From Candidatus Binataceae bacterium (GTDB lineage Bacteria > Desulfobacterota > Binatia > Binatales > Binataceae), in NCBI GenBank assembly GCA_035493515.1, contig DATJID010000070.1, positions 27,264-91,263 on the forward strand: a DNA stretch of 64,000 nucleotides, read 5' to 3'. Both the position numbers and the translations under genes were made by a program. Below the pieces are notes generated by a model that was given only the letters and a program-made list of their open reading frames with translations, did no database searches and had not been told where the DNA came from. This document shows, piece after piece, positions 8,524 through 62,863 of the stretch (positions are counted from its first letter, which is position 1; each line of letters begins with the position of its first letter).

Positions 8524-8524
8524 G

Positions 8525-11878: not shown

Positions 11879-12087
11879 CAGCGCATCGACTTCATTGGTG
11901 TGGGCCGCGCGCACGACGGACAATTCCCGCGCATCCAACCTGCCTTTTGATAGCACAATAGGCTTGCCCGCGCGGCGTCCGTATGGTTCGATGGCTTGTT
12001 CAGCGTGAGGCTCGCGCCTCGTCGTGAATAATCAAACATGGTGGGCTCGACACGAGCCGGCATTCGGCCTCGTTCTGGCTTCAGGCG

Positions 12088-12246: not shown

Positions 12247-12265
12247 ACCGGCGGCGGTCGCCGTC

Positions 12266-12965: not shown

Positions 12966-12974
12966 AGGAGCAAT

Positions 12975-14711
12975 TTGGACAGTACACGCCAGATCGTCAT
13001 CTTCGTCCTGCTGGTCGTCGCGGCGATCTTTTATGCCGATATCATCCGCTGGATTCGTCCGCCGAAGGCGCCAATCGGTCAACCGACGGCGCAGCGAACC
13101 GGCGCCACACCGGCCGTCCCGGCTCGGTCGGGTACAGCTCCGATACAGGCTTCGACGGAGCCGCCAGCGGCGTCCCCGATGGCGACCGCCGGCTCGACCG
13201 AGCAGCCGACGGGCGGCGTCCCGGAACCCGAATCGCTGACCCCGCCGACGCTGAGCACCGGCCCCTCGCGCACGATAGAAGCCGACACTGACCTTTACCA
13301 CGCCACCTTTACGGCCAAGGGCGCGCGTCTCCTGAGCTTCCGGCTGAAGCGCTATCGGGAAACGGTACGCAAGGATAGTCCGCAATACGACGTCGTCGTG
13401 CAGGGCGAGCGTCTGCCGCTCGGGCTGATTGTCAACCGCGACGGTAAAATCTTCGGCGATTCGGGCGTCGACTACACGACTGACGCGCCCGCGCAGGTCG
13501 TTATCGGACCGGGCAACGACACCGCGACGGTGACCTTCACCGCCGATACCCGGGAAGGGCTCAAGCTGACCAAGCGTTTCATCTTCCGCAATGGCCGATA
13601 CCTATACGACATCGAAGCGGAAGTTGGCGGTGCGACCCCTGACGTCAAGGCGATTGGGTTCACCATGACCCAGCCGCTGACCGAGCGTGCGCCGGAGCAG
13701 GGCTATCGGGATTATCCGGCGCTTGAGGCCGATATCGATGGCAAGGTCCTCAATGAATACCAGAAACAGCTCGAAAAGGGCCTTGCGCCGGTCTCTGGCG
13801 ACATCGCCTTCGCCGGCATTGGCGATCGCTATTTCCTTTCCGCCTTCATCCCCAAGGCGCCCACCAAGGGCGAGCTGCGGATGGAGTACAGCGGGGGCGA
13901 GGCGCGGGCCGAGGTGCTGTTTCCGGGAGCGCTGAAGGCTTCGACTGCGGTTTACATGGGGCCCAAGCAGCTCAATTTGCTGGAGGCTGCGAGTCCGACG
14001 CTGAGCAAGGCAATCAACTTCGGCTGGTTCGGGCTGCTGGCGGTGGTTTTTCTACGCGCGCTGCAACTCCTGCATACCATCGCGCCGAACTACGGCTGGG
14101 ACATCATATTACTGACGCTCGCGGTACGGCTGGCTACCCTGCCGGCGTCAATCAAGGCCCAGCGCTCGGCGCTGCGGATGCAACGGCTCGCCCCGCAGGT
14201 CGAGAAAATCCGCGCCAAATTCAAGGATGATTCGACGGCGCTCAATCGCGAGATGATGGAGCTGTACAAGCGTAACCACGTCAACCCGCTCGGAGGATGC
14301 CTCCCCACGGCTATCCAGTTTCCGATCCTTTATGGCTTGTACGAGGCGCTGCTCAATTCGGTAGAGCTTCGCCATGCCCCATTCATCTTCTGGATCAGGG
14401 ATTTGTCGGCGCCCGACTGCCTGCCCATCGCCTGGATGCCCAAGGTACCGGGGATTGACTGCCATGGCCTGCCGATCGTGGTTTTGCTGATGGGCATTAG
14501 CACGTTCGCCCAGCAATGGATGATGCCCAAGGCGGGCGACCCCAATCAGCAGAAGATGATGATGTGGATGCCTATCTTCTTCACCGTGCTGTTTATAGCT
14601 TTGCCAGCCGGGTTGTCCCTCTATTACTTTGCCTCCAACGTACTGGGTATAATTCAACAGTTTTTCCTGAATCGGGAATTCAAACAGTACACCCCAGTTG
14701 CCGCAGCATGA
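12975..14711 (+). CDS. yidC: Membrane protein insertase YidC
   Basis: N-terminal TM helix, a large periplasmic domain and a conserved C-terminal 60-kDa insertase core (NPLGGCLP, PIFFTVLFIALPAGLSLYYF). Confidence 0.93.
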   Translation: MDSTRQIVIFVLLVVAAIFYADIIRWIRPPKAPIGQPTAQRTGATPAVPARSGTAPIQASTEPPAASPMATAGSTEQPTGGVPEPESLTPPTLSTGPSRTIEADTDLYHATFTAKGARLLSFRLKRYRETVRKDSPQYDVVVQGERLPLGLIVNRDGKIFGDSGVDYTTDAPAQVVIGPGNDTATVTFTADTREGLKLTKRFIFRNGRYLYDIEAEVGGATPDVKAIGFTMTQPLTERAPEQGYRDYPALEADIDGKVLNEYQKQLEKGLAPVSGDIAFAGIGDRYFLSAFIPKAPTKGELRMEYSGGEARAEVLFPGALKASTAVYMGPKQLNLLEAASPTLSKAINFGWFGLLAVVFLRALQLLHTIAPNYGWDIILLTLAVRLATLPASIKAQRSALRMQRLAPQVEKIRAKFKDDSTALNREMMELYKRNHVNPLGGCLPTAIQFPILYGLYEALLNSVELRHAPFIFWIRDLSAPDCLPIAWMPKVPGIDCHGLPIVVLLMGISTFAQQWMMPKAGDPNQQKMMMWMPIFFTVLFIALPAGLSLYYFASNVLGIIQQFFLNREFKQYTPVAAA

Positions 14712-22180: not shown

Positions 22181-22726
22181 ATGGAAAAGCTGCCGTCCGC
22201 CTATAAACAGGTCGCACCTAACCGCTATCGCGAGGCCTACGGGCTCTTTTACGAGGACTTCACGCCAGGCGACGTTTTCGAGCATCGCCCCGGCCGCACG
22301 CTCACCGAAACCGACAACATCTACATGACGCTGCTGGCGATGAACACGCACCCGCTGCACTTCGACTCGGCCTACGCGAATGCGACGCAATGGAAACGGC
22401 CGCTGATGAATTCGCTGGTCACGATTTCGGTGGTCACCGGAATGAGCGTGCACAGCACCAGCCAAAACGCCGTCGCCAACCTGGGATGGGACAAGGTGCG
22501 GCTGGTCAATCCGGTCTTCGCCGGCGACACGCTCTACGCGGAGACCGCGGTGGTCGCCAAGCGCGAGTCCGCAAGCCGCCCCACCCAGGGATTGGTCACT
22601 GTGCACACGGTCGGCATGAAAACCGACGGCGAGAACGGACAATCGGGAATTGTGGTGATCGAATTCGATCGCACTTTCCTGGTCTACAAGCGCGAGCATT
22701 CGCCGCTGGGCAAGGCCAACTACTAG
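22181..22726 (+). CDS. MaoC-like (R)-hydratase / hot-dog fold dehydratase
   Basis: FTPGDVFEHRPGRTLTETDNIYMTLLAMNTHPLHFD is a typical MaoC dehydratase N-terminal pattern. Confidence 0.75.
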   Translation: MEKLPSAYKQVAPNRYREAYGLFYEDFTPGDVFEHRPGRTLTETDNIYMTLLAMNTHPLHFDSAYANATQWKRPLMNSLVTISVVTGMSVHSTSQNAVANLGWDKVRLVNPVFAGDTLYAETAVVAKRESASRPTQGLVTVHTVGMKTDGENGQSGIVVIEFDRTFLVYKREHSPLGKANY

Positions 22727-22752
22727 ACGCAGCCTTATCGGCGAGAAGACCG

Positions 22753-23871
22753 GTGACGGCGGCGATCAAGCGCGAGCCATCGCGGCGTCGCGCGCGCGGT
22801 GTTCTCGTGCCGCTCGCGCTAGCGGCAATTCTGATCGCGAGCCTCGCGGCCTGCGCGGCGGCTGCGGCGCCGCCGCCGCTCGCCGCGTTTCCCGCCGGAC
22901 TCGATCCCAATTCGATGCTGTTGCCGCCGCCGGCCGAAGGCGGACGCGTCAAGGTGAGCGTTGCGCTGCACGTGCTCAACCTCTCGGGCATCGACGAGGT
23001 CACCGAGCGCTTTGAGCTAACCGGCTATCTGCTGGCGCAGTGGAACGATCCGCGCCTCAACTATAAGGCCTCCGGCAATGGCGACAAATATCGAACGCTC
23101 GCGCCGGATTCGGTGTGGCGGCCACAGCTGGTCATAATCAACGCGGTCAAGCCGCGCCAGGTTCTTGAAGAGTCGCTGCACGTCGCTCCGGACGGGACCG
23201 CGTCCTACGTCGAACGCTTCGACGCGCTCGTGACCTCGACTTTTTATCTTAGGCCCTTCCCCTTCGATGCGCAGAAGCTCGAGGTCCTGGTCCATCCGTT
23301 CACCGACCAGCAGCTGTCCGTCGCCTTCGTCACCAGTCGGTTGCCAGTGTGGACCGCGACCGAGTTCAGCACCTATTCCTCGCTGGAGTCGTGGGAATTC
23401 AAGTCGCTGACCGCCAAGCTCGGAACGGCGGCGAGCCAATTCGGCGAACATGCGATTGCCGAAGCGCGGTTCGAGATCGCGGTTGAGCGACGCTACGAGT
23501 TTTACCTGTGGAAGGTGTTTCTGCCGCTGCTGCTGATGGTGGTCGTGTCGTGGTCGGTGTTCTGGTTCGACCCGTCCGAAGTTTCGAGCCAGGTGACCAT
23601 AGCTGTGACTACGATTCTGACGATCATCGCGTTCGCGCTCGCGATCTCATTGACCCTCCCGCGAGTGCCATATCTGACTTTCGCCGACGCTTTTTTTCTG
23701 GCCTGTTACATCTTCGCTTTCCTGGCCATGCTCGAACTGACCACCGTGCATATCGCCTATCGCAACGAGCGGCGCGACCTGGCCAGGGGAATCCGCCGCA
23801 CCGCCCGCTGGTTGGTGCCGGCGGCGTTCGTCGTGGTCAATTCAATCCTGATTCTGCATTTTCTGACCTAA
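22753..23871 (+). CDS. Prokaryotic pentameric ligand-gated ion channel (GLIC/ELIC-type)
   Basis: GTG 22753 is the first start after the MaoC stop in the 22390..23871 frame. Signal/lipobox-like LIASLAAC. Beta-rich ectodomain (VSVALHVLNLSGIDEVTERFELTGYLLAQWNDPRLNY; WRPQLVIINA). Four TM helices with a short M3-M4 loop. Confidence 0.75.
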   Translation: MTAAIKREPSRRRARGVLVPLALAAILIASLAACAAAAAPPPLAAFPAGLDPNSMLLPPPAEGGRVKVSVALHVLNLSGIDEVTERFELTGYLLAQWNDPRLNYKASGNGDKYRTLAPDSVWRPQLVIINAVKPRQVLEESLHVAPDGTASYVERFDALVTSTFYLRPFPFDAQKLEVLVHPFTDQQLSVAFVTSRLPVWTATEFSTYSSLESWEFKSLTAKLGTAASQFGEHAIAEARFEIAVERRYEFYLWKVFLPLLLMVVVSWSVFWFDPSEVSSQVTIAVTTILTIIAFALAISLTLPRVPYLTFADAFFLACYIFAFLAMLELTTVHIAYRNERRDLARGIRRTARWLVPAAFVVVNSILILHFLT

Positions 23872-47435: not shown

Positions 47436-48290
47436 ATGGCGACGACTTTTGGCGCGATGATGTTCCCGACCGACTACGCGATTCAGCCGATCGAGCTGGC
47501 GCGTGCGGTCGAGGAGCGCGGACTCGATTCGCTCTATTTTCCCGAACATACGCACATTCCCACCAGCCGGCGCAGCCCGTGGCCCGGCGGCGGCGATTTG
47601 CCCCAGGAGTACTGGCATACGCATGATCCGTTCGTGGCTCTGGGCGCGGCCGCCGCGGCGACCAAGCGCATCAAACTTGGCACCGGTGTGTGCCTGGTGA
47701 TCGAACGCGATCCGATCGTGCTGGCCAAGGAATGCGCCTCGCTCGACCTGATTTCGAGCGGGCGGCTGGTGCTCGGAATCGGCGGCGGATGGAACGCTGA
47801 AGAGATGGAAGATCACGGCACCGACTTTCGCAAGCGATGGGCGCTATTGCGCGAGCGAATTTTGGCGATGCGTGCGATCTGGACCAAGGATCCGGCGGAG
47901 TTCCATGGTGAATTCGTGAACTTTCCGCCGATGCTGGCGTTTCCCAAACCCGTGCAAAAGGGCGGACCACCCGTGCTTCTGGGCTCGGAGGCCAAGCGAT
48001 GCTTCGAGCGGGTGGCCGACTACTGCGATGGATGGATGCCGATCTATCGGCGCAACCATACGCTGGCCGAAGGCGTGAAACAGTTACGCGAGGCGGCGAG
48101 CCGCGCCGGCCGGCGCTTCGAATCGTTGACACTGTCGGTCTTTGGCGTGCCGCCGCGCGAGGAAGAAGCGAAAAAGCTGGTCGAGATCGGATTTCACGAA
48201 CTTATTTTCGCCTTGCCGCCGGCGCCCGCCGACAAGGTGCAGCCGATGCTCGACAGTTACGCGGCGATTAAGCGCAAGCTCGGCGCCTGA
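47436..48290 (+). CDS. Luciferase-like monooxygenase (LLM) family oxidoreductase, F420-dependent-type
   Basis: FGAMMFPTDYAIQPIELARAVEERGLDSLYFPEHTHIP...GGGWNAEE resembles the TIGR03619-type LLM class. Cofactor assignment is an inference. Confidence 0.75.
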   Translation: MATTFGAMMFPTDYAIQPIELARAVEERGLDSLYFPEHTHIPTSRRSPWPGGGDLPQEYWHTHDPFVALGAAAAATKRIKLGTGVCLVIERDPIVLAKECASLDLISSGRLVLGIGGGWNAEEMEDHGTDFRKRWALLRERILAMRAIWTKDPAEFHGEFVNFPPMLAFPKPVQKGGPPVLLGSEAKRCFERVADYCDGWMPIYRRNHTLAEGVKQLREAASRAGRRFESLTLSVFGVPPREEEAKKLVEIGFHELIFALPPAPADKVQPMLDSYAAIKRKLGA

Positions 48291-48342
48291 CGGGTGTCGC
48301 CGTAGCCCGATCGCGCTCGGCGCGTGACGGAGGTTCCTTGCG

Positions 48343-49122
48343 ATGGGACGTCTTGATGGAAAAGTCGCCCTGATCGTCGGCGGAGGCGCCGACGGACCGC
48401 CCAATGCGGGCGAGACGCTCTCGATTGGCAATGGCCGCGCCACCGCGATCCTGTGCGCGCGTGAGGGCGCCGCGGTGATGGTCGCCGATCGCGCCGAGAC
48501 GCTGGCCGGCGAAACCGCCGCGGCGATTCGCGCCGAGGGTGGCCGAGCCGGCTCGGTTGCCGCCGACGTCACGCTCGAGGACGACTGTCGCCGCGCCTGC
48601 GAGGCCGCGGTGCGCGCTTTCGGCAAGCTCGATCTGCTGGTCAACAACGTCGGGATAGCGATCGGCGGCCGCCTGCTCGAAACCACCATCGAGCAGTTCG
48701 ATACGATGTCCAAGGTCAACGTCCGGGGCCAGTTCCTGATGATGAAGTACGCGGTGCCCGAGATGGCCAAGGCCGGCGGCGGGGCGATCGTCAACGTCTC
48801 CTCGCTGGCCGCGATTCGCACCGGCTCGGGCCTGCCTTACGAAACCACCAAGGCCGCGCTGCTCGGGCTCACCCGCTCGGTCGCGGTCACGCACGCACGC
48901 GACAAGATTCGCGTCAACACGATTTTGCCGGGATTGATCAACTCTTCGATGGTGCGCCGGCTGGTCGGCGACCGCGAGGAGCGGGTCGCGCCGCGTATCC
49001 CGATGCGCCGTCAGGGCACGCCGTGGGAAATCGCCAAGGCGATCGTTTTTCTGCTTTCCGACGAGGCTTCGTACATCACCGGCACTGAATTAATCGTCGA
49101 TGGCGGCTTGAGCGCGCGTTAA
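48343..49122 (+). CDS. SDR family oxidoreductase
   Basis: GKVALIVGGG..., NNVG and Y..TKAA motifs. Confidence 0.8.
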   Translation: MGRLDGKVALIVGGGADGPPNAGETLSIGNGRATAILCAREGAAVMVADRAETLAGETAAAIRAEGGRAGSVAADVTLEDDCRRACEAAVRAFGKLDLLVNNVGIAIGGRLLETTIEQFDTMSKVNVRGQFLMMKYAVPEMAKAGGGAIVNVSSLAAIRTGSGLPYETTKAALLGLTRSVAVTHARDKIRVNTILPGLINSSMVRRLVGDREERVAPRIPMRRQGTPWEIAKAIVFLLSDEASYITGTELIVDGGLSAR

Positions 49123-49142
49123 CCGCCAAAGCGAGGTATCCG

Positions 49143-49913
49143 ATGAGACTTTTCACTTTTGCGACCAGCCCATACGCGCGCAAGGTCCGGATGATGCTCG
49201 AGTTCAAGGCGATCGAGTGCGAAATGGTCGAACGATGCTACTCGCTCGATCGCAAGCCGGACCTGCGCGAGGCGAGCGAGCGCGCCGAGGTGCCGGTACT
49301 GGTGCTCGACGATGGTCGCGTGATCGCGGACTCCACGATCATCTGTGAGTATCTCGAAGACGTGCATCCCCAGCCGCCGGTTTTTCCCCTCGATCCTTTC
49401 GAGCGTGCGCGGATGCGCGCGATCGATGATTTGTGCGACCGCACGTTCGACGCGACGGTCTTTGGCTATTTCCTTGGCGTCGTGCGGTCGGCGGCGCCCG
49501 AGTCCAGGGCGATGCAAGACGCGGGGCGCGCCGAGTTCAAGGCGCTGCTCGCGCGGCTGGAGCGCGAACTCGAAGGCCGGGACTATTTCTGCGGCGCCGC
49601 GCTCTCGCTCGCCGATCTTGCCGTCATCTGCCATCTGCCGGTGGCCCACGCGATGCGGCTTCCGATGCACGAATTCCCGCGCCTGGCGGTCTGGGAGAAG
49701 CGGATGCGTGCAATTCCGCTGGTCGCTGCCGACCTCGAGCGCGCGCGCAAGGCGATGGCCGGGGGCAACCTGGCCGACGAGTTCGCGGGCCCCGATGGCC
49801 GTGTCCATTGGCGCGATAGCCGGCTCGAATGGCCCGTGCGCCATGGCTTTGTCGACTTCATTGCGCGCGAATTCCATGCAGGTAAGATGATGTTTCCGCC
49901 CGACGCGTCCTAG
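49143..49913 (+). CDS. Glutathione S-transferase family protein
   Basis: MRLFTFATSPYARKVRMMLEFKAIECE...EVPVLVLDDGRVIADSTIICEYLED matches the thioredoxin-like GST N-domain. Confidence 0.8.
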   Translation: MRLFTFATSPYARKVRMMLEFKAIECEMVERCYSLDRKPDLREASERAEVPVLVLDDGRVIADSTIICEYLEDVHPQPPVFPLDPFERARMRAIDDLCDRTFDATVFGYFLGVVRSAAPESRAMQDAGRAEFKALLARLERELEGRDYFCGAALSLADLAVICHLPVAHAMRLPMHEFPRLAVWEKRMRAIPLVAADLERARKAMAGGNLADEFAGPDGRVHWRDSRLEWPVRHGFVDFIAREFHAGKMMFPPDAS

Positions 49914-49955
49914 GACACGCCGCGTCCGGAATGCGAGCCCACGAGGAGCGAATCG

Positions 49956-50816
49956 ATGCCCGTCGCCTATATCCCGCGCACGCGCGAGTTGTACAACGCC
50001 TACACGCCCTATCGATGGGTCATGAACGATGAACCACCGCCCTGGACGCCGCTCAGGAAACCGCTTGCCGAGTGCAAGGTCGCACTGATGAGTTCGGGCG
50101 GCATGCTCTACCGCGATCAGCCGCGCTTTCATCGCGAGGACACGAGCTACCGTCTCATCCCGAAAAATGCGCGGCGCGACGAGCTTACCGTCTGGCATTT
50201 CGGCTACCCGACCGGGGATGCCGAAAAAGATCCGAACTGCGTTTTCCCGCTCGAGCGGATGCGCGAGTTCGAGGCCGCGGGCCGGATCGGGGAGCTATGC
50301 GATCCGGCGTTCACTTTCATGGGTGGGATCTACTCGGCGCGCAAGGTGCGCGAGGAACTGGCGCCGAAAATCGTCGAAGAACTTCGCAGCCGCAACGTGG
50401 AAGCATTTTACCTGGTGCCCGCTTGACCCGTGTGCCATCAGTCCGTTGGACTGATTGCCCGCGAAGTCGAGGCCGCCGGAATCCCGACCTTGTGCATGAC
50501 TTCGGCATACGACATCACGCAAGCCGTCAATCCGCCGCGCGCGGCATTCGTCAACTACCCGCTCGGCCATCAGACGGGCAAACCGAACGATGCGGAAAAC
50601 CAGCGCGCAATCATTCGCGACGCGCTGGCTGCGTTCGAAACGATAAGCAAGCCCGGCACGATCGTCGAGTTGCCCTATGTATGGGACGCGAATGATCGCC
50701 GCTGGGAGGAGACCGATTACACGCCCGGATTCCTGCCGCCACGGCCCAGGAAGGCCGATGCCGATCTGGCCGAGCAGGAGCGCCGCCGCCGCTACACGAC
50801 GGGCAATCCGGGGTAA
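49956..50816 (+). CDS. GrdB/PrdB-family (glycine/sarcosine/betaine/D-proline reductase component B-like) protein, probable selenoprotein with TGA(Sec) at 50424-50426
   Basis: Track ORFs 49956..50426 and 50430..50816 are in frame and separated only by TGA-CCC. The joined sequence reads ...EAFYLVPA-U-PVCHQSVGLIAREVEAAGIPT... (a U-x-x-C motif). A SECIS-like hairpin follows. Confidence 0.7.
50437..50455 (+). promoter_or_regulatory. Candidate bacterial SECIS hairpin
   Basis: ATCAGTCC-GTT-GGACTGAT is a perfect 8-bp stem with a G/U-containing apical loop. It starts after a 10-nt spacer downstream of the in-frame TGA. Confidence 0.55.
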
Positions 50817-50879
50817 ACCGTAGCGCCGCCGCCGCACTGGTTCGCCGCGGTGGGTAAATCTGACCAGGGAGAATTGACG

Positions 50880-51401
50880 ATGGCTGAAGAACGCAAAGGC
50901 GCGGTCACGATGCGCGGAAACCCGATGACGCTGGTGGGGCCGGAACTCAAACCCGGCCAGAAGGCGCCCGCCTTCACCGCCGTGGGCAAAGGGCTCGCGC
51001 CGGTAACCCTCGACCAGTTTAAAGGCAAAGTGAAAATAATCGCCGCGATTCCGTCGATCGACACGCCCGTGTGCGACGCAGAGACCCGCCGCTTCAATGA
51101 GGAAGCCTCCAAGCTGCCCGGCGACGTGCAGATATTGACCATCTCGATGGACCTGCCGTTTGCGCAGGCGCGCTGGTGCGGAGCGGCCGGCGTCGACAAG
51201 GTCACCGCGATCAGCGACTGGCGCGCGGCCGAGTTCGGCCAGAAATACGGCGCGCTTATCAAGGAGCTGCATCTGCTCGCCCGCGCGGTCTTCGTGCTCG
51301 ACAAGAACGACAACGTCGTTTATGCCGAGTACGTCAAGGAGGTGGCCGATCAGCCCAACTTCGAAGCCGCTCTCGCAGCGGCGCGCAAGGCCGCGGCCTA
51401 A
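50880..51401 (+). CDS. tpx: Thiol peroxidase (atypical 2-Cys peroxiredoxin Tpx)
   Basis: ATG 50880 follows GGGAGA. GNPMTLVGPELKPGQKAPAF...IPSIDTPVCDAETRRFNEEA...FAQARWCGA matches the Tpx pattern. Confidence 0.88.
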   Translation: MAEERKGAVTMRGNPMTLVGPELKPGQKAPAFTAVGKGLAPVTLDQFKGKVKIIAAIPSIDTPVCDAETRRFNEEASKLPGDVQILTISMDLPFAQARWCGAAGVDKVTAISDWRAAEFGQKYGALIKELHLLARAVFVLDKNDNVVYAEYVKEVADQPNFEAALAAARKAAA

Positions 51402-51426
51402 GAGTACCCGGACGGCGCGGCGGCTC

Positions 51427-52143
51427 GTGCGACCGTCGATCCCGACGGCGGCCGGCCGCCGCGCGCGCGACGCGAAGAGCGGCGCTTCGCCGTGGCGATG
51501 GCGGATCGGCGCGCGGACGCTATGGGTCGTTCCAGACCAAGCGTGTCGCGTGCTCAGTTGGGCGCCGCTCGGCGGCGGCGTTCGCATCGCCCACCTGCTC
51601 GCAAATCACCAAATTGAGCTCGACGATCGCGAGGCGATGCGTAGGCCACGCGCATGCCTGGCAGCCGTCGTGCGGGCTGCGGGATATGACCCGCAGCGGA
51701 CCGTCGCGCTGATGACCGGCGCGGAAGTCGCGCGCGCCGGCTATGCGCTCGCCGCTCGCGCGGGCGTAATCGCGGGAGCATGGTGTACGGTAGGATTCTC
51801 CAACGCGCTTCGTGTCGGAGATCGCGCGACCGTGCTCTCCAGCCATGCCGGTACGATCAATATTATCGTCGTCGTGAACCGCCCCCTGATTCGTGCCGCA
51901 ATGGTCGAGGCGGTCGCGATCGCCACCGAGGCCCGCGCGCTTGCCGTGCTCGAAGCGGGAATCGAAAGCGTGCGCTCGGGTGCGCCGGCGACCGGCACTG
52001 GCACTGACTGTATCGCGATCGCGGCACCGCTTCGCGCTGACGCGCGTGCTGGGCGATATTGCGGTAAGCATACGCTGCTGGGCGAGCTAATCGGCCGCGC
52101 GGTGCTCGAAAGCTGCATGCGGGCGATCCGTCGCATGCGTTGA
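51427..52143 (+). CDS. cbiZ: Adenosylcobinamide amidohydrolase CbiZ
   Basis: VLSWAPLGGGV...TGAEVA...GTINIIVVVN...ATEARALAVLEAG...ATGTGTDCIAIA matches the CbiZ pattern. The start is uncertain; GTG 51427 is the first start after the tpx stop in this frame. Confidence 0.7.
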   Translation: MRPSIPTAAGRRARDAKSGASPWRWRIGARTLWVVPDQACRVLSWAPLGGGVRIAHLLANHQIELDDREAMRRPRACLAAVVRAAGYDPQRTVALMTGAEVARAGYALAARAGVIAGAWCTVGFSNALRVGDRATVLSSHAGTINIIVVVNRPLIRAAMVEAVAIATEARALAVLEAGIESVRSGAPATGTGTDCIAIAAPLRADARAGRYCGKHTLLGELIGRAVLESCMRAIRRMR

Positions 52144-52158
52144 AGCCGCATTCCAGAA

Positions 52159-53127
52159 GTGGGAAACGGATTCTACATTTCGACTGCGGCGATCGCGGCG
52201 GCGCTCGCCCTCGACCTGCTGCTCGGCGATCCGGCGTGGATGCCCCATCCGGTGCGCTTTATCGGGCGTGCCGTTGCCTTTGGCGAAGCCCGGCTGCGCA
52301 CTGGCGAGTCGCGCGCGGATCTTTGGCGCGGCGCACTGCTCGCCTCGGCGGTCGTGATTCTCACCGCGGTCGCGGCCTGGATCGTCATCGCCATCGCTTC
52401 GTCAGTGACGCACTGGCTCGGCCTCACGGCCGCGGTGCTGATTGCGTGGACGACGCTCGCGCTGAACGGCCTTGATCGTGCCGCCGGCGAGGTTGAGAGG
52501 GCGCTTGATCGAGGGTGCGACGATCTTGCGCGCGAGGCAATGCCGGCGCTGGTCGGACGCGATCCCGCCACCCTCGACCGAGACGCGATGGTACGCGCCA
52601 CGGTCGAGTCGGTCGCCGAGAACTGCTCCGATGGCGTGCTGGCGCCGCTGTGCTTTCTTTTTGTCGGCGGCCCCGTCATTGCTCTCGCCTACAAGGCTGT
52701 CAACACGCTCGACTCGATGATTGGCTACCGCGACGCTCGTTACCTTTACTTCGGGCGCGCGGCGGCGCGGTTGGACGATGCCGCCAATTTCGTGCCCGCG
52801 CGTTTAACCGCCCTTTGCCTCGCGGCAGCGGCGGGACTGACGCTTGGGCGCGGCGGCGCAGCGGTCCGCGCGTGTCGCGCCGATGGGCGCAAGCACGCGA
52901 GTCCTAACGCGGGCTTTCCGGAAGCCACGATGGCGGGCGCGCTCGGAATCGAGTTGGGTGGCGATGCGATTTATGCAGGAGAAATCGAGCATCGCGCGCG
53001 CCTCGGAGGAGCGCAACGCGCGGTTAAAGTAGCGGATATCAGGGCGGCGCGCCGTCTGATGCGTATCGCGACAGCAATCGGCTTTGGCCTGCTCGCACTT
53101 CTGCGCTATGTGGTCTCCAGCTACTGA
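52159..53127 (+). CDS. cbiB: Adenosylcobinamide-phosphate synthase CbiB
   Basis: LLLGDPAWMPHPVRFIGRAV...NTLDSMIGYR...HASPNAGFPEATMAGALG matches the CbiB/CobD membrane protein pattern. Confidence 0.88.
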   Translation: MGNGFYISTAAIAAALALDLLLGDPAWMPHPVRFIGRAVAFGEARLRTGESRADLWRGALLASAVVILTAVAAWIVIAIASSVTHWLGLTAAVLIAWTTLALNGLDRAAGEVERALDRGCDDLAREAMPALVGRDPATLDRDAMVRATVESVAENCSDGVLAPLCFLFVGGPVIALAYKAVNTLDSMIGYRDARYLYFGRAAARLDDAANFVPARLTALCLAAAAGLTLGRGGAAVRACRADGRKHASPNAGFPEATMAGALGIELGGDAIYAGEIEHRARLGGAQRAVKVADIRAARRLMRIATAIGFGLLALLRYVVSSY

Positions 53128-53158
53128 CATACGATGAGTCCGCGCGCTAAACCCGCTG

Positions 53159-54235
53159 ATGATGAAATTCGAACCGATAGAACTCCAGCTGGACCGGACT
53201 CACGGCGGCGCCGCGTCGCCCGGTGTGGTGGACTTCAGTGCCAGTCTAAATCCGCTGGGCCCGCCGCCACAGGCGCTAGCCGCATATCATGACGCGGCTG
53301 CGTTCATCGCACGCTATCCGTCTCCTGACGCCAGCGATCTGGCTCGCCGCCTTGCCCGGCGCCATCGCGTGGCGCCCGACAATGTTGTGGTCGGTAATGG
53401 CTCGACCCAGCTGATCCATCTGCTCGCTCGCACGCTGCGCCCGCGCTGCCCGTTCGTCGCGATACCGACCTTCAGCGAAATTGCCAACGCGATGATAGTT
53501 GCGGGCGGAGCGGCGTACGCGATGCTGGCGCGCCGTGAGCGCGGCTTTGCGATCGAAATCGGGCAAGTTGAGCAGGCGCTGGAGCGAGGCGCTGACGCGC
53601 TGTTCATCGGAAGGCCCAACAGCCCCACTGGCGCGATGCTGAGTATCGGTGACGCCATCGAAATCGGCGCGCGATGTTCCAGTCGCGGCTGCTGGTGCGT
53701 CTTCGACGAGGCCTTTATCGACTTCGTGGGCGAAGAGCATTCGGCGATCCGCCGGGCCGCCGAAGATTCGCACGTCATTGTGCTGCGCTCGATGACCAAA
53801 ATGTTTGCGATCGCCGGCTTGCGGCTGGGCTACCTGGTTGCTGGCCGCGATACTGCGCGCCGCCTGCGTGAAGCGATTGAACCCTGGTCGGTCAATGTGG
53901 TGGCCGAGCGCGTCGGCAACGCCTGTCTCGACGTGGCCGACGATTTCGCCGTGCGAAGCCGCACTCTGATAGCCTCCGAGCGTACGCACCTGGTTGGCGC
54001 ACTCAACTCGATCGAGGGTATTCGCGTATATAAATCGTCCGTCAACTTCCTGATGCTTGAAGTGGCGGAGCACGGGCACGCTACGCGATTCGCGCAACAT
54101 GCGCTCTCGCGCGGTATGGCGGTGCGCGATTTGGGCGACTTGCCTGGATGCAGTCCCGGAATGTATCGCGTAGCAGTCCGACTGCGCGAAGAGAACGAGC
54201 AGTTGATTGCGGCTGCGCGCGCGTATTTCGACTAA
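53159..54235 (+). CDS. cobD: L-threonine-O-3-phosphate decarboxylase (CobD, aminotransferase class I/II)
   Basis: DFSASLNPLGPP, NPNSPTG-like (RPNSPTG) and SMTKMFAIAGLRLGY (PLP lysine). Context between cbiB and cobT fits. Confidence 0.8.
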   Translation: MMKFEPIELQLDRTHGGAASPGVVDFSASLNPLGPPPQALAAYHDAAAFIARYPSPDASDLARRLARRHRVAPDNVVVGNGSTQLIHLLARTLRPRCPFVAIPTFSEIANAMIVAGGAAYAMLARRERGFAIEIGQVEQALERGADALFIGRPNSPTGAMLSIGDAIEIGARCSSRGCWCVFDEAFIDFVGEEHSAIRRAAEDSHVIVLRSMTKMFAIAGLRLGYLVAGRDTARRLREAIEPWSVNVVAERVGNACLDVADDFAVRSRTLIASERTHLVGALNSIEGIRVYKSSVNFLMLEVAEHGHATRFAQHALSRGMAVRDLGDLPGCSPGMYRVAVRLREENEQLIAAARAYFD

Positions 54236-54279
54236 TCAATTTGAACAACAGTCAATCGACGACGAAAACGGCATCGGAT

Positions 54280-55347
54280 ATGGATGTGCTCGAAAAAACG
54301 CTCGCGGCGATAGTCTCGCCCGATGAAATGGCGGCCGAGGAAGCGGGCCGCCGGCTCGATTCGTTGACCAAGCCACGCGGCAGCCTCGGGTATCTGGAGG
54401 ATATTGTGCGGCGTTACGCCGCTATCCGCCGCGACCCGACGGCTCGAATGGGCGGCGGCGCATGCTGCGTTTTCGTCGCCGATCACGGGGTCACGGAGGA
54501 AGGCGTGAGCGCCTACCCGCAAGCGGTCACGGTCGAGATGCTGCGCAATATTGCTGGTGGCGGAGCGGCGATAAGCGTGCTCGCGCAGCGCTTGGGTTAT
54601 CGGTTGTGGATCGCCGACCTTGGTGTGGTGACCGGCAGCAGCGCCGATGCGCTGCCTGGCGTGCTTTATCGGCGTATCGGAGCGGGCACGCGCAATCTGG
54701 CGCATGAGGCCGCGATGTCCGTCGCACAGGTGCGTGCCGCGCTGGAAATTGGTGTGGACGTCGCGCGTTGTGCGGTCGCGGGCGGCGCCACGCTGATCGG
54801 AATCGGCGAGATGGGAATCGGCAACAGCACCTCGGCAGCGGCATTGCTTGCGGCATTCACGCGGGTTCGTCCGGCGCGCCTGGCCGGACGCGGCACCGGC
54901 ATGGACGATGCCGGGTTGCAGCGCAAGGTCGCGGTTATCGATCGCGCGCTCAAGCTCCATCGCGCAGCGCTCACAGACCCGCTCGCCACGCTCGCGGCGT
55001 TAGGCGGCTTCGAGATCGCCGCGATGGCCGGCGTATGCCTGGGCGGCGCGGCGCTGAACGTTCCGGTGGTGGTTGACGGCTTCATCGCTACAGCGGCCGC
55101 GGTGAGCGCCGAGCGCTTGAGCCCCGGCCTGTCCGCTCACTTGTTTTTTGGCCATCGCTCGTCCGAGGGGGGCCACGCGATCGCGCTCGATAAACTAGGC
55201 GTGCGTCCGATCCTTGACCTTGGGATGCGCTTGGGCGAGGGCACGGGCGCGGCGCTCGCGATGAGCGTGGTCGAATCCGCGCTGGCTCTGTTCCACCAGA
55301 TGGCGACGTTCGAGAGCGCCGGAGTTTCGGAGAAATTGGATGGCTGA
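54280..55347 (+). CDS. cobT: Nicotinate-nucleotide--dimethylbenzimidazole phosphoribosyltransferase
   Basis: LDSLTKPRGSLGYLED...GIGEMGIGNSTSAAAL...GMRLGEGTGAALA. ATG 54280 lies inside the longer track ORF. Confidence 0.9.
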   Translation: MDVLEKTLAAIVSPDEMAAEEAGRRLDSLTKPRGSLGYLEDIVRRYAAIRRDPTARMGGGACCVFVADHGVTEEGVSAYPQAVTVEMLRNIAGGGAAISVLAQRLGYRLWIADLGVVTGSSADALPGVLYRRIGAGTRNLAHEAAMSVAQVRAALEIGVDVARCAVAGGATLIGIGEMGIGNSTSAAALLAAFTRVRPARLAGRGTGMDDAGLQRKVAVIDRALKLHRAALTDPLATLAALGGFEIAAMAGVCLGGAALNVPVVVDGFIATAAAVSAERLSPGLSAHLFFGHRSSEGGHAIALDKLGVRPILDLGMRLGEGTGAALAMSVVESALALFHQMATFESAGVSEKLDG

Positions 55348-56149
55348 GGAGTCCGAGAGCGCGCCCAATCGCGAAAATCGAGCGCAAACGCCAAACGGCA
55401 CCGCGCGCGGTGGAACGCTCGCGGAAATTCGCCTTGCCGCGGGCTTCCTGACCATCCTGCCGGTACTTCCGCGTGCCGACGTAGCACCCGAGACGCTCGC
55501 GGCGTCGTTCGGATGGTTCCCGCTCGTGGGGTTTGCGCTCGGCGCGTTGCTAGCGGCCGAGAAACTGTTGCTGACGCCACTTTTTGGCGACGCGCTCGCC
55601 GCGGTAGTGCTGGTGCTGACTTTGACCGTGCTGACCGGCGCAGTCCATCTCGACGGGCTTGCCGATAGCGCCGATGCGTTGGGTGCGGGCACGGATCGGC
55701 GCCGCGCGCTGGAGATCATGCGCGACAGCCGGATCGGCAGCTTTGGCACGGCCGCGATTTTCTTTTTTCTCGCGCTCGAAATCGTAGCGCTGGCGACGAT
55801 GGACGAAGCACGCCGCACCGCGGCGCTTTGGCTTGCCCCGGGGCTGGCCCGCTGGGCGATGGTGGCGGTTGGATGGCGCATCGACTATTTGCGCGCAGCG
55901 GGCGCAGGAACGTTGCTGGTTGCGCCCGGCGGCGATCGCAATCTCGTACTCGCCAGCGCGATTGCCGCGCTCGCCGCATTGCCAATATTCTCGTGGCGCG
56001 TGTTGTTGGTCTATGCTGCGGCAGCAGTGCTGGCAGCCCTGCTGCGCGCGGCGTACCGGCGATGGCTCGGCGGCGTGACGGGAGACCTTCTCGGTGCGGC
56101 GGGTGAACTGGTGGAAGTGGCGGTGCTGCTCGCGATCGCGGCTATTTAA
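55340..56149 (+). CDS. cobS: Adenosylcobinamide-GDP ribazoletransferase (cobalamin synthase)
   Basis: FLTILPV...HLDGLADSADAL...GVTGDLLGA motifs. Overlaps the cobT stop. Confidence 0.88.
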   Translation: MAEESESAPNRENRAQTPNGTARGGTLAEIRLAAGFLTILPVLPRADVAPETLAASFGWFPLVGFALGALLAAEKLLLTPLFGDALAAVVLVLTLTVLTGAVHLDGLADSADALGAGTDRRRALEIMRDSRIGSFGTAAIFFFLALEIVALATMDEARRTAALWLAPGLARWAMVAVGWRIDYLRAAGAGTLLVAPGGDRNLVLASAIAALAALPIFSWRVLLVYAAAAVLAALLRAAYRRWLGGVTGDLLGAAGELVEVAVLLAIAAI

Positions 56150-56663
56150 CCCGCATCGGGTAGCCCGCGACCATCAGCAACACGTGTTCGGCGGTCTGTG
56201 CGAGCGCCTGGTTAGTCCATCCCAGGAGGTCACGGAAGCGACGCGCCATCGCGTTGTCCGGCACGATTCCCGCTCCCACCTCATCAGTCACCACGAAGCT
56301 GGCAAATGGCGCGGCGGCCATCACGCCGGCAAGGCCACGAGCCTCGGCCAGAATCTCTTCATCGCTGCGCTGGGCCATCAGCAGATTCGAAATCCAAAGC
56401 GTCAGGCAATCGACGACCATGACATCGGCGCGGCCCGCCAGCGCTGAGAGCGCGGCGGCGATAGCGATCGGTTCTTCGACCGTCACAAAGTCGGCGGAGC
56501 GATTGGCGCGATGATGCGCGATCCGTTCGCGCATCTCATCGTCGAGCGCTTCAGCCGTGGCGACAAAGAAGCGCCGCGCGCCCGGCGCCTGCAGTGCCAG
56601 TGCGAGCGCGTGGGCGCTTTTACCGCTGCGCGCTCCTCCGGTTATCAGCGTTACGGTACCCAT
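56142..56663 (-). CDS. cobU: Bifunctional adenosylcobinamide kinase / cobinamide-phosphate guanylyltransferase
   Basis: VTLITGGARSGKSAHAL P-loop plus ATAEALDDEMRERIAHHRANR. Convergent with cobS, with 8 nt of overlap. Confidence 0.88.
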   Translation of the reverse strand: MGTVTLITGGARSGKSAHALALALQAPGARRFFVATAEALDDEMRERIAHHRANRSADFVTVEEPIAIAAALSALAGRADVMVVDCLTLWISNLLMAQRSDEEILAEARGLAGVMAAAPFASFVVTDEVGAGIVPDNAMARRFRDLLGWTNQALAQTAEHVLLMVAGYPMRVK

Positions 56664-56729
56664 CCGGCGTTCCTGTCCGCTTGTTTCGCGGCCCGACGAT
56701 TGACTTGTCTGGCGTGAAAATCATATCAG

Positions 56730-56880
56730 TCTTGTGCACTCGGTGTACGGGAAGCCGGTTAAAGTCCGGCGCTGCCCCGCAACTGTATGGGGGGACAACG
56801 GCCCATCCAAGCCACCGCTAACGAGCGGGAAGGCGGGCCCGCGGATGATCCCCAAGCCAGGAGACCGGCCGAGTGACTAT
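56730..56880 (+). promoter_or_regulatory. Cobalamin (B12) riboswitch
   Basis: GGGAAGCCGGTTAAAGTCCGGCGCTGCCCCGCAACTGTA core and B12 box AAGCCAGGAGACCGGCC (56854-56870). P1 pairing is CACTCGG/CCGAGTG. The downstream leader contains CCCTC, complementary to the RBS GAGGGAGG just before ATG 57002. Confidence 0.88.
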
Positions 56881-57001
56881 TAAGCCGTCTGCCTTCCGTG
56901 GGGAAGGAGGCTTAGGCTACTCGCCACTTCCCTCTCTGGGAGCCTGCCCGAGCGCCTGAGTCGGTCGACCCGCGAGGCCGACGCATAGCTCGAGGGAGGC
57001 T

Positions 57002-59047
57002 ATGAAAAAATCGGTTGCGGTTGTTTCCGTTCTGACATTTTTTCTTTTCGTTGAATGGCCAATCGCCTCGCGCGGCGCGCACGCCCAAACCATGTCCCAA
57101 CCGGCCGCGACGGGAGCCGCGCAGGTCAGAGCTAACGCGCAGGCTAAACCCAAAAAAACCACAACTGCCGCCAAGTCCCATCGCAAGCTGCCGAAGATGG
57201 TCTTTGTGGTCACGGCGACGCGGATGGAGCAGCCGCTCGATACGGTCGGCACCACGGTGAGCGTGGTCGAGTCACATCAGATTCAGGAGCAGCATATCCA
57301 TGCCGCAGGCGAGGTTTTGCGCCAGGTGCCCGGTGTCTTGGTCGAGCAAAGCGGATCGGCGGGCACGCAGACCGACGTCTCCATTCGTGGCTCGACCGCG
57401 GCCCAGACGCTAATCCTCATGGATGGCGTTAACGTCGACAGCGGTGCGACCGGTGGCTTCGACATGGCCGGCGTGACCAGCGACGATCTCGACCGAATCG
57501 AGGTGGTGCGCGGCGCAGGCGGCGCGCTTTACGGTTCGTCGGCCATCGGGGGTGTCGTCAACCTCATCACTCGCGAAGGCAGCGGTCCGCTCAAGCTCAG
57601 CTACGATGGCGAGGGCGGGAATCGCGCCACCCAGCGCCAATCGTTGGTGTTCGACGGCGCCAAGGGCCGGCTCGCCTACTCGGGCGCGTTGTCCTATTTT
57701 TCGACCACCGCGTTTCGTCCGCGCAACGCGAGCTTCGACAATCTGTCGGGCGTCGCACGCGTGGACTATCATCTCACTCCCGATACCAAATTCACCGGCT
57801 TCGCGCGTTACATCCGCTCCAACGTGAGCCTGGTCAACTTTTCCAACTTTATTACGCCGGTCGACCCGAACGCCCATCAACGTAACGAGTTCATGCTTTA
57901 CAACGGCGTCGTCACGCATCAGTTCAGCGACCGGCTGGACGGACGACTGAGCGCCTTCTTCGTGCGCAACGATCTCCGCATCAACGACACGCCGTTCCCA
58001 GCCAATCTCACCGCCCAGCGCGACCGCGTTCCGGACGAGACTCGCGGCACCAACATGGAATTGCACTACAAATGGGGCGAGGGCATTCGCTCTCTGGCCG
58101 GGTTCGATTTCAAGGACCGATGGGTGCGCTCGGCGGATCTGTTCGAGACCATCGACCCACCCGCGCAATTTTTCACCAGCTTCGACGCGCGCCGTCAGGA
58201 GTACGCCGGCTACCTCGAGCAGGAGTGGCGGTTGTTTAAGGGCCTGATGCTACTGACCGGCGGAGTTCGGGTCGACGGTAACAGCGATTTTGGCATCGAG
58301 GTGAGCCCATCATGGACGGTCGCGATACCGCTTGAGCAGTGGGGCCTGACGTTGCGCGGCAGCTACAGCGAAGGCTTTCGTGCGCCGAGCTTCAACGAGC
58401 TGTTTTTTCCCGATTTCGGCAATCCGAAGCTTAACCCCGAGATCTCCAGCGAATACGACGGCGGCATCACCAAGACCTTCGGTGAGACGGCGTCGTTTAC
58501 CGCCACTTACTTTTCGCGCCGCGTGCACAGCCTGATCGTGGCCGAGCCCTGTACGGCCTTTCCGGGATGTGTCGAGGCGGCCAACGCCGGCCGGGTCGAT
58601 ACCCAGGGCGTCGAACTGGTACCGGCGGTCCAGTTGATGCGCGGGCTTGCGTTCAGCGGCAACCTGACCGTGATCGACGAAACTCACATCTCATCGTCGC
58701 CCGAAATCCGGCCGTTGCGCGTACCCAAGTATGCTGCCTTCGCGCTCCTGACGTACGCGCACAAGTCGCTTTGGAAAATGGACGACGCGGTTTCGGCCAA
58801 CCTCGCCTACTACTTCGTCGGCGACCGCGACGACATCGACCAGACTACCGCGACGATTCAGAACAATGCCGCCTACAATCGGTTCGACCTGACGGTGGCC
58901 TACGACGCGGGGATTCGCTACGGACGGATTCGCGGCGAAGAGGTTTACGTGCGGGTGCAGAACTTGCTCGACCGCCATTACAACGAGGTGATTGGATTTC
59001 CCTCGCCGCAGGTCAACTTCGTCGCCGGGGTCAAAGTGGATTTCTAG
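57002..59047 (+). CDS. btuB: TonB-dependent outer-membrane receptor, BtuB-like corrinoid transporter
   Basis: Signal peptide, TonB-box-like MVFVVTATR, plug domain (DVSIRGS...LILMDGV), a beta-barrel with terminal ...GVKVDF, and a B12 riboswitch immediately upstream. Confidence 0.85.
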   Translation: MKKSVAVVSVLTFFLFVEWPIASRGAHAQTMSQPAATGAAQVRANAQAKPKKTTTAAKSHRKLPKMVFVVTATRMEQPLDTVGTTVSVVESHQIQEQHIHAAGEVLRQVPGVLVEQSGSAGTQTDVSIRGSTAAQTLILMDGVNVDSGATGGFDMAGVTSDDLDRIEVVRGAGGALYGSSAIGGVVNLITREGSGPLKLSYDGEGGNRATQRQSLVFDGAKGRLAYSGALSYFSTTAFRPRNASFDNLSGVARVDYHLTPDTKFTGFARYIRSNVSLVNFSNFITPVDPNAHQRNEFMLYNGVVTHQFSDRLDGRLSAFFVRNDLRINDTPFPANLTAQRDRVPDETRGTNMELHYKWGEGIRSLAGFDFKDRWVRSADLFETIDPPAQFFTSFDARRQEYAGYLEQEWRLFKGLMLLTGGVRVDGNSDFGIEVSPSWTVAIPLEQWGLTLRGSYSEGFRAPSFNELFFPDFGNPKLNPEISSEYDGGITKTFGETASFTATYFSRRVHSLIVAEPCTAFPGCVEAANAGRVDTQGVELVPAVQLMRGLAFSGNLTVIDETHISSSPEIRPLRVPKYAAFALLTYAHKSLWKMDDAVSANLAYYFVGDRDDIDQTTATIQNNAAYNRFDLTVAYDAGIRYGRIRGEEVYVRVQNLLDRHYNEVIGFPSPQVNFVAGVKVDF

Positions 59048-62030: not shown

Positions 62031-62188
62031 TCACAATAGCAGAGCGGCGCCGGAGCGCGCGCGATGGCCAGCCCACGATGGCCAGCCGTGGTTCGACTGA
62101 CCGCCCCCCTTTCGCCGCCTGCGGGGCGATGGCAGCCCGGATTGAGGCGATGCTAGACTTCGGTAGAATCCGCCGGGAGGTTCTTCCG

Positions 62189-62863
62189 ATGATCGTTTTG
62201 TATACAACCGAGCGTGATTATCCGTGGGGTACGCTTCGCTCCACGCATGCGAGTAAGAGCAAGGTAGTGCTCGAGGAAAAGCGCATCCGCTACCGAATTG
62301 AAAATCTGCGCCCCGGCGACCTCTGGAAAAAACCGCCCGCGATGCTGGCGCACCATCCGCTCGGCAAGGTTCCGTATATCGAAGACGAGGGCGTGACCGT
62401 CTTCGACTCGACCGTGATCGATGAATATCTCGACGACCGTTACGGGCCGCCCCGCCTGCTGCCCGACGAGCCGTTGGCGCGCGCGCAAGTGCGTGAGTTC
62501 GAGCAATTTGCCGACGAGGCGCTGCTGGGCGGAAACCTGCCGCTCATCTGGATGGCCTATTGGAGCGATCCCGACAAGCGCGACGTCGAGCGCATGGAGA
62601 AAGGGCGCGAGGGACTGCGCCAGCGCGATCTGCCGTTTATCGAAAAGGTGCTCGGCGCAGCGCCGTCTGGCGGCAGTCTGCGCGGCGGCTTTTCGATGGC
62701 GGACGTGCCCATGATGGTGCTGGCGATGGTGCTCGAAGTAGACCAGTTAGCACTGGATGAATTTCCCCGGGTCGAGCGTTACCTCAGAGAATTGCGCCTG
62801 CGGCCGAGCTATCGCGCGATAAGTCCACGCACCAGGGTCGCGGAGGCGAGCGAGTTGCGCTGA
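62189..62863 (+). CDS. Glutathione S-transferase family protein
   Basis: ATG 62189 follows GGGAGG. N-domain ...HHPLGKVPYIEDEGVTVFDSTVIDEYLDDRY and a helical C-domain. Confidence 0.75.
   Translation: MIVLYTTERDYPWGTLRSTHASKSKVVLEEKRIRYRIENLRPGDLWKKPPAMLAHHPLGKVPYIEDEGVTVFDSTVIDEYLDDRYGPPRLLPDEPLARAQVREFEQFADEALLGGNLPLIWMAYWSDPDKRDVERMEKGREGLRQRDLPFIEKVLGAAPSGGSLRGGFSMADVPMMVLAMVLEVDQLALDEFPRVERYLRELRLRPSYRAISPRTRVAEASELR

Follow-up and report, generated by a model that had tools for sequence, protein, structure and literature searches.

A stand-alone PrdB-like selenoprotein gene with an in-frame UGA and a SECIS hairpin, predicted in Candidatus Binataceae

Does the TGA at positions 50424-50426 of a 64,000-nucleotide (64-kb) stretch of Candidatus Binataceae DNA (assembly GCA_035493515.1, contig DATJID010000070.1, positions 27,264 to 91,263; hereafter the window, whose numbering is used throughout) end a gene, or is it read as selenocysteine (Sec)? 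The open reading frame (ORF) 49956..50426 terminates at this TGA; a CCC codon follows, and then a GTG at 50430 that opens a second ORF, 50430..50816, in an unchanged frame. An initial annotation had described this pair, separated by the TGA and one codon, and had proposed that it is a single gene for a stand-alone GrdB-like selenoprotein. The ORFs lie as described, and 49956..50816 on the forward strand is very probably one gene, encoding a 286-residue stand-alone selenoprotein of the GRDB/PrdB family whose UGA is recoded through a selenocysteine insertion sequence (SECIS) and which would act as a U-x-x-C redox enzyme without a pyruvoyl partner. Four lines of evidence uphold the proposal of a stand-alone, Sec-containing GRDB-family redox protein: the Sec/Cys column of the family, the conservation of the TGA and of the coding region beyond it, the SECIS evidence, and the tRNA-Sec genes of relatives.

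One gene, probably read through an in-frame UGA

Translation through the TGA yields the expected 286 residues, ...YLVPA-U-PVC-HQSVGLIAREVEAAGIPT..., and with them the U-x-x-C motif; the peptide around Sec reads YLVPA-U-PVC-HQSVGLIAR. That standard annotation would split the gene was also foreseen, and gene callers indeed return a 156-residue product carrying PF07355 and a separate ORF of 106-128 residues without a Pfam match, while the NCBI entries for homologues are truncated 158-residue products. TGA is the commonest ordinary stop in the window, ending 19 of 40 Pfam-supported genes, which points to local recoding under the standard code and not to an altered genetic code. No other TGA-bridged pair of coding-like ORFs in the window is followed by a strong fold; the remaining TGA-bridged coding pairs turned out to be ordinary adjacent genes.

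When one genome per species was scanned, relatives turned up in at least 596 genomes, of which the best 80 were taken. Almost all of these are Candidatus Binataceae or "uncultured delta proteobacterium" metagenome-assembled genomes from soil, with 70-97% identity. Together with five contigs that encode an identical N-terminal half, they make up a set of 85 related loci (L001-L085), and all 85 have the TGA and an in-frame second half. The median identity is 72% for the half after the TGA and 74% for the half before it. Differences per site in the downstream half are concentrated at codon position 3 (0.435, versus 0.16 and 0.13 at the other positions), indicating that this half evolves as coding sequence. 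After CCN, only 26/76 orthologues have GTG and the others GTC, GTA or GTT, so that independent initiation of the second ORF is not conserved. Thus, the initial annotation's own counter-case, a conserved genuine stop with independently translated halves, does not describe these loci: neither the start codon nor a Shine-Dalgarno sequence for the C-terminal half is conserved. Metagenomes were searched with a pattern that ignores the hairpin (MGG[IV]Y, about 30 codons, then TGA-CCN-NTN-TGY); of the 120 loci returned, 119 are read-through PrdB-like genes. These come from marine, freshwater and soil samples and have identities in the N-terminal half down to 33%.

Homologous proteins show what occupies the position of the TGA. 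Most of the best 120 database homologues are 157-158 residues long and end in ...LVPA; the minority that are full length read VPxCPVCHQ, and these Cys forms align with the joined protein from end to end. Searched with a profile, 1.84 billion cluster representatives gave 3445 related clusters at the 50% identity level, 1469 of them at E <= 1e-10. Many representatives stop at profile position 164-165 or begin at 168-173 and correspond to the two halves of split genes, and Cys occupies the Sec column in 37 of the 46 full-length representatives that bear the motif. The TGA also coincides with this column in a true PrdB, P0159, as was found when the initial annotation's suggested alignment with GRDB members was made. 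The motif's Cys160 is invariant in the homologue alignments, and H161 and Q162 come next.

Some entries have other residues in the Sec column. P0064, P0132, P0188 and P0239 have Trp there and retain the SECIS-encoded peptide PVCHQSVGLIA; they are likely to be genes in which a code-4 gene caller read TGA as Trp, or single-base TGG mutants. Further database homologues have Ser, Arg or Phe. Three near-identical entries (P0001, P0071 and P0116) are frameshifted, and their read-out passes the TGA region in another frame; these are probably metagenome assembly errors that inflate the apparent number of "full-length" matches.

Three Binataceae loci contain a tRNA-Sec gene 2.5-7 kb from the orthologue, called by ARAGORN and by the Rfam model RF01852 at 71-76 bits (gathering score 47). 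Hence selC, at least, is present in the Binataceae lineage. By chance, about 0.4 would be expected in the DNA examined, compared with the three seen. Shared ancestry of the three genomes is possible, and so the proximity could reflect inherited synteny rather than functional linkage. One apparent selA was rejected: the ORF at L214:9055-10197 (minus strand), 4 kb from an orthologue and labelled "SelA" by Pfam, is a DgaE-family ammonia-lyase dependent on pyridoxal phosphate (TIGR01437, 228.6 bits; the selA model TIGR00474, only 47). DgaE-family ORFs with this label could mislead Pfam-based calls of the Sec machinery.

The hairpin downstream of the UGA

The initial annotation had also pointed to a perfect 8-bp hairpin, ATCAGTCC-GTT-GGACTGAT, which is present and begins 10 nucleotides past the TGA. 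The upper stem of a bacterial SECIS is spaced about 11 nucleotides from the UGA. A 61-nucleotide segment folds at -27.3 kcal/mol, compared with -15.6 +/- 2.5 kcal/mol for 200 dinucleotide shuffles (z = -4.8), and 0/200 shuffles were as stable. Among 78 Binataceae-type sequences, codons +4 to +9 (CAT CAG TCC GTT GGA CTG) have zero or near-zero synonymous entropy, versus 0.6-1.9 bits in the flanks. The sole changes in these 78 stems are at the third base of the loop and from GGA to GGG, by which a U-A pair becomes U-G.

Covariation was assessed in a gapless alignment of 114 distinct orthologous 48-nucleotide segments. Paired cells amount to 94.4% for the proposed structure and to no more than 38% in controls with slid partners. 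Three pairs show compensatory changes: 15-31 (UA85/CG17), 18-28 (GC108/AU5/GU1) and 19-27 (UA63/AU36/UG9), which correspond to 50438/50454, 50441/50451 and 50442/50450 in the window. Double-change cells number 58, against 20 +/- 3 after shuffling, and 0/500 shuffles reached this value. The first two bases of the loop, G and U, are each at least 90% conserved. Minimum free energy (MFE) and centroid folds extend the element by two lower pairs beyond a 1x1 mismatch. Of these, pair 11-35 is GC in 112/114 segments, and pair 12-34 occurs as CG (72 segments) or UG (37), weak evidence given that the bases are mostly fixed by the Cys and Ala codons. Judged from this sequence comparison, the hairpin is a conserved RNA element, a SECIS.

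Family placement and gene neighbourhood

The joined protein matches PF07355 (GRDB) at 43.7 bits (cut-off 22, E = 2.8e-11), with residues 33-153 on model positions 219-344 of 347, and a metagenome protein identical to the N-terminal half likewise carries a precomputed PF07355 label. The match stops four residues short of the TGA, as expected if the model was built on Sec-truncated sequences. In contrast, the match to TIGR04483 (PrdB) crosses the TGA. Its score, 178.5 bits, lies below the equivalog cut-off of 300, and the control, the true PrdB P0159 from the profile search, scores 453.2. P0159 is 35% identical to the joined protein over 220 residues, with U157 on C151 of its CGTCHR (C151-G-T-C154). 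The Grd models (GrdB/GrdF/GrdH) match more weakly, at 52-66 bits and over model positions ~219-429 only; TIGR01917 and TIGR01918 (glycine reductase protein B) give 52.2 bits versus 602 and 56.2 versus 65.45, both under the cut-off. An N-terminal segment, PVxYIxRTRExY..PYRW, and a C-terminal tail are features of the subfamily without a counterpart in PrdB. These scores and alignments assign the protein to the GRDB/PrdB superfamily, as a stand-alone PrdB-like subfamily nearer to PrdB than to GrdB, and place it outside the PrdB equivalogs. Thus, of the earlier term "GrdB-like", the membership in GRDB stands, and the resemblance is closer to PrdB.

Table 1. Features of the selenoprotein locus and tRNA-Sec genes of related loci (positions refer to the window unless a locus is named)
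Feature	Position	Strand	Evidence
Glutathione S-transferase (GST), 42 nt 5' of the selenoprotein gene	49143..49913	+	Pfam GST_N_3, GST_N_2, GST_C_2, GST_C
Shine-Dalgarno-like GAGGAG, 7 nt 5' of ATG 49956	49943..49948	+	Sequence inspection
Predicted selenoprotein gene, 286-residue PrdB-like (Pfam GRDB), Sec at residue 157	49956..50816	+	Translation, profile matches, homologue alignment
UGA predicted to be read as selenocysteine, U157	50424..50426	+	TGA conservation, Cys in homologues, PrdB alignment
Codon for Cys160, putative partner (resolving) Cys of U-x-x-C	50433..50435	+	Alignments; kept in true PrdB P0159
Extended SECIS: lower pairs G50434-C50458 and C50435-G50457, beyond 1x1 mismatch	50434..50458	+	MFE and centroid folds
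SECIS upper stem-loop, 8-bp stem ATCAGTCC/GGACTGAT, loop GUU	50437..50455	+	Fold, synonymous suppression, covariation
Thiol peroxidase Tpx, 63 nt 3' of the selenoprotein gene	50880..51401	+	NF001808, 213.9 bits vs cut-off 123
tRNA-Sec (selC)	L054:946-1039, L057:3089-3184, L071:1249-1344	-	ARAGORN, RF01852

From 47436 to 56149 all genes lie on one strand: an LLM oxidoreductase, an SDR, the GST, the selenoprotein gene, Tpx, and cobalamin salvage genes. The position between GST and Tpx, part of the original description, is confirmed by the domain and profile matches of Table 1. The gaps of 42 and 63 nucleotides contain no terminator-like site, and GST, the selenoprotein gene and Tpx are probably co-transcribed. 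Pfam scans of about 45 ORFs and the precomputed labels of an identical contig found no PrdA and no GrdA, GrdC, GrdD or GrdE in the window, as the initial annotation had stated. Likewise, no Prd partner lies beside the gene in the window, the 80 Binataceae genomes, the 120 metagenome loci or 7 other contigs; as these searches covered loci and not the whole genome, a distant prdA is possible.

Synteny was counted in 73 Binataceae-lineage loci with adequate flanks and, outside the lineage, in 109 loci from 58 lineage groups. Within the lineage, 57/73 loci have a same-strand Tpx gene downstream. A MAPEG membrane GST, absent from the window, stands between the selenoprotein gene and tpx in 37/73, and a soluble GST lies upstream in 29/73; of 33 lineage loci that carry a GST, 32 have it upstream on the same strand. 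Altogether GST, MAPEG and/or Tpx are adjacent in 66/73 loci, almost always on the same strand, and none of them is adjacent in 7/73. In other lineages Tpx is found at only 3 loci and no GST homologue is found upstream. Clustering of the neighbours in the 109 loci gave no cluster present in more than 4 groups and none that was Prd or Grd. The GST/MAPEG/Tpx neighbourhood thus characterises the Binataceae lineage and offers a lead, but it is no signature of the family; the thiol-redox neighbourhood initially described exists in the window and in Binataceae and does not extend to the family.

Individual loci add detail. An inserted MAPEG gene is recorded at 45 lineage loci; in L080, for example, the MAPEG protein has 130 residues (PF01124, 70.6 bits) and its gene lies about 90 nucleotides past the stop of the PrdB-like gene. 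In L211/L212:3880-6684, there is a 4-nucleotide overlap between the gene for the Cys-form homologue P0027 and the stop of a family-III CoA-transferase gene, and a SagB-type nitroreductase-fold dehydrogenase comes next, a setting unlike that in Binataceae. MFS and LLM genes were considered as family-wide partners and rejected, as they recur in few lineages only.

Directly 3' of tpx in the window lies a cobalamin salvage/lower-ligand cluster (51427-56663; cbiZ, cbiB, a cobD-like aminotransferase gene, cobT, cobS and cobU), which is adjacent to the selenoprotein gene in only about 20 of 80 related genomes. A cobalamin riboswitch (56724-56887, 107.9 bits) precedes a gene for a TonB-dependent receptor (region 56724-59047). 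A second GST-like gene (62078-62863, +), with only GST_N domains above threshold, lies 11 kb downstream. Elsewhere, positions 22390-23871 (+) encode a 493-residue homologue of prokaryotic pentameric ligand-gated ion channels (Neur_chan_LBD and Neur_chan_memb) with an N-terminal extension of about 170 residues, and 5743-14711 contains parB, parA, mnmG (gidA), mnmE (trmE), rnpA and yidC, an origin-proximal gene set. The window is probably near the chromosomal replication origin.

Mechanism, alternatives and known systems

By analogy with the bacterial Sec system, a complex of SelB, GTP and Sec-tRNA(Sec) would bind the hairpin, and the UGA would be decoded as Sec. The U-x-x-C redox pair would then consist of Sec157, where a beta-strand ends, and Cys160, in the opening turn of the helix that follows. 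The selenolate may serve as the nucleophile on the substrate, as in PrdB and GrdB; Cys160 would resolve the adduct into an Se-S bond (selenenylsulfide), and a cellular thiol system would re-reduce this bond. The protein is predicted to act without a pyruvoyl PrdA or GrdE partner, and its setting in Binataceae (GST, often MAPEG, and Tpx) may point to a role in reduction or detoxification linked to glutathione or peroxide. The strand-to-helix placement is taken from an AlphaFold2 model of the 57%-identical Cys-form homologue P0002 (pLDDT 84.9, pTM 0.85), an alpha/beta domain with a disordered C-terminal tail, in which the Sec-equivalent Cys155 lies between strand 148-152 and helix 156-171 and Cys158 in the first helical turn. 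Foldseek also returned a weak similarity to flavodoxin-like/B12-binding Rossmann folds, which was dismissed as non-specific even though cobalamin genes lie downstream.

The protein could instead be a real selenoprotein with no small-molecule substrate, a general thiol-disulfide redoxin that carries electrons, for example as the dedicated reductant of Tpx. A U-x-x-C at a strand-to-helix junction does resemble redoxin active sites, the Tpx gene is a frequent downstream neighbour within the lineage, and the Sargasso Sea survey files the PrdB family under thiol-dependent redox proteins (PMC1088965). However, dozens of invariant polar residues far from the motif are common to PrdB (Y126, S127, R66, H81, D92, R195 and Q216 among them) and suggest a substrate pocket, which makes an enzyme acting on a small substrate of its own more likely than a protein that only carries electrons. 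In addition, the linkage to Tpx is absent in nearly all other lineages, and the fold is not thioredoxin-like and has no neighbour in the PDB. An electron carrier is accordingly considered unlikely.

Much less probable is a true D-proline reductase PrdB that reduces D-proline to 5-aminovalerate with a PrdA proprotein (the source of the pyruvoyl subunit) and PrdC encoded elsewhere. PrdB is the best NCBIfam match, JGI pipelines name such proteins "D-proline reductase (dithiol) PrdB", and the resemblance to real PrdB includes the same U/C-x-x-C-H and the shared SYR, H81, D92, FMGG, R169, E172, PPR and Q216. Against this, the score falls far short of the equivalog cut-off, the protein has its own N-terminal segment and C-terminal tail, and no PrdA or other Prd gene lies beside the orthologues in more than 200 related loci, whereas prdB and prdC form operons (2026 review). 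Moreover, the host bacteria live in soil and ocean, many of them presumably as aerobes, and are not Stickland fermenters (PMC2398784).

Least credible of all is a genuine stop, by which a split gene would make two polypeptides or a pseudogene would be decaying beside a hairpin that is incidental or a translational or transcriptional pause: gene callers do give two ORFs, a GTG stands two codons past the TGA, and the window lacks Sec machinery, but that GTG is shared by a minority of orthologues and inspection found no comparable Shine-Dalgarno-like motif 5' of it, over 200 loci, with identities as low as 33%, retain the frame, TGA and hairpin, a pseudogene would not hold position-3-biased substitutions downstream, full-length homologues have Cys at the column, and the lineage has tRNA-Sec.

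Several observations weigh against the preferred reading, a Sec-containing enzyme of the PrdB-like subfamily. The window contains no tRNA gene, and hence no selC, and no SelA, SelB or SelD was found among its roughly 45 ORFs with Pfam or among the labels of the identical contig; in 2.1 Mb of related loci, tblastn likewise gave no match to the E. coli SelA, SelB or SelD. The search for sel genes that was initially suggested has therefore yielded selC, in three related genomes, and no selA, selB or selD in the window or the related loci. As for the hairpin, the loop-closing pair 21-25 is unpaired in 37/114 sequences, making the loop 3-5 nucleotides; the stem is near-invariant within Binataceae, so that all covariation comes from distant orthologues; and some compensating changes are coupled to amino-acid changes (Ser/Thr, Ile/Val). 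A search of 50300-50600 at E <= 10 found no matching SECIS family in Rfam, the matches to dauA and mir-3135 being chance hits on the opposite strand. The structural model is that of a homologue and not of the window protein, a PDB sequence search returned nothing relevant and no structure to anchor the mechanism, and Foldseek of the P0002 model against the PDB gave none at E < 1e-3 (TM <= 0.31). Finally, the GST/MAPEG/Tpx context is missing, bar 3 loci, from the 58 other lineage groups, where the neighbours are MFS transporters, LLM oxidoreductases, SDRs, a divergent GST, a CoA-transferase and a nitroreductase, and so the glutathione/peroxide link may be local or coincidental.

A broader suggestion is offered tentatively, as one that will more probably fail than hold. 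Stand-alone PrdB-like proteins, rather than being proline reductase subunits or plain redoxins, may be autonomous, very widespread Sec/Cys reductases that use PrdB-type chemistry (selenolate attack on carbon or a heteroatom, then an Se-S bond) without a pyruvoyl partner, and the Binataceae unit GST - PrdB-like - (MAPEG) - Tpx may serve glutathione-linked detoxification, for example the release of glutathione from S-conjugates or the re-reduction of Tpx. If true, a selenoprotein family that ranks among the most abundant orphans of ocean and soil would gain a function.

Catalogues of selenoproteins have included the family since 2005, and this locus is a further member. In the Sargasso Sea, "proline reductase PrdB" (pfam07355, UxxC) ranked third in abundance among selenoprotein families, with Sec in 42 forms and Cys in 1 (Zhang, Fomenko & Gladyshev 2005, PMC1088965), and the Global Ocean Sampling (GOS) survey listed 235 Sec and 110 Cys forms (Zhang & Gladyshev 2008, PMC2398784). 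"Proline reductase" selenoproteins have also been listed for Anaeromyxobacter dehalogenans and Geobacter uraniireducens (PMC1794560). A literature search returned nothing on the function of the stand-alone homologues or on the use of Sec in Binatota.

What is added here is a quantified set of SECIS covariation, a placement in Binataceae together with the lineage's tRNA-Sec, the occurrence of the family without Prd or Grd partners across lineages, and the Binataceae-specific GST/MAPEG/Tpx cluster, a first functional lead for the family. All pipeline outputs examined have the gene in split or truncated form; joining it restores the 286-residue selenoprotein and indicates that UGA is decoded as Sec in the uncultured Binataceae of soil. 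The alignment with compensatory changes provides a ready model with which to find and correct such genes. The family is large and among the top-ranked selenoprotein families in ocean metagenomes, yet it is named for a clostridial enzyme whose partner subunits it lacks. Current knowledge is not overturned, and the importance of the locus would grow only if the orphan function is tied to glutathione- or peroxide-linked chemistry.

The "PrdB" family of the surveys resembles the window protein in its Pfam family, in its UxxC Sec motif and in the excess of Sec over Cys forms, and one related locus, L141, is itself an AACY (Sargasso Sea/GOS) contig that reads UPVCHQSVGLIAR and whose halves are 52% and 59% identical to those of the window protein. 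The surveys are marine, whereas the Binataceae copy is from soil; the GST/MAPEG/Tpx cluster is undescribed there; and the surveys inherit the PrdB name, under which stand-alone homologues and the Stickland enzyme are pooled. The clostridial D-proline reductase selenoprotein is PrdB (Kabisch et al. 1999, as cited in PMC1088965), and according to the review literature UxxC is the Sec motif of both GrdB and PrdB.

Clostridial PrdB has the same domain at about 35% identity, a similar core size, and a Sec/Cys column followed by x-x-C-H; its Sec is presumably residue 151, matching C151 of P0159. It differs in its motif, C/U-G-T-C-H-R where the window protein has U-P-V-C-H-Q, and the window gene has no PrdA, PrdC, PrdD or PrdE nearby and encodes an extra N-terminal motif and C-terminal tail. 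GrdB, GrdF and GrdH share a homologous C-terminal domain (GRDB positions 219-344) with Sec in UxxC(xxC), but GrdB has about 430-435 residues with an added N-terminal half and works with GrdA, GrdE, GrdC and GrdD, none of which is encoded near the 286-residue protein. As for the SECIS, the hairpin differs from the E. coli fdhF type in its unrelated sequence, its perfect 7-8 bp stem without a bulged U, and its loop of 3-5 nucleotides. With that type it shares its location within the coding region soon after the UGA, with about 10-11 nucleotides to the upper stem, and it has the features described for bacterial SECIS elements, a small apical loop with a conserved G (PMC1088965), joined here by a conserved U.

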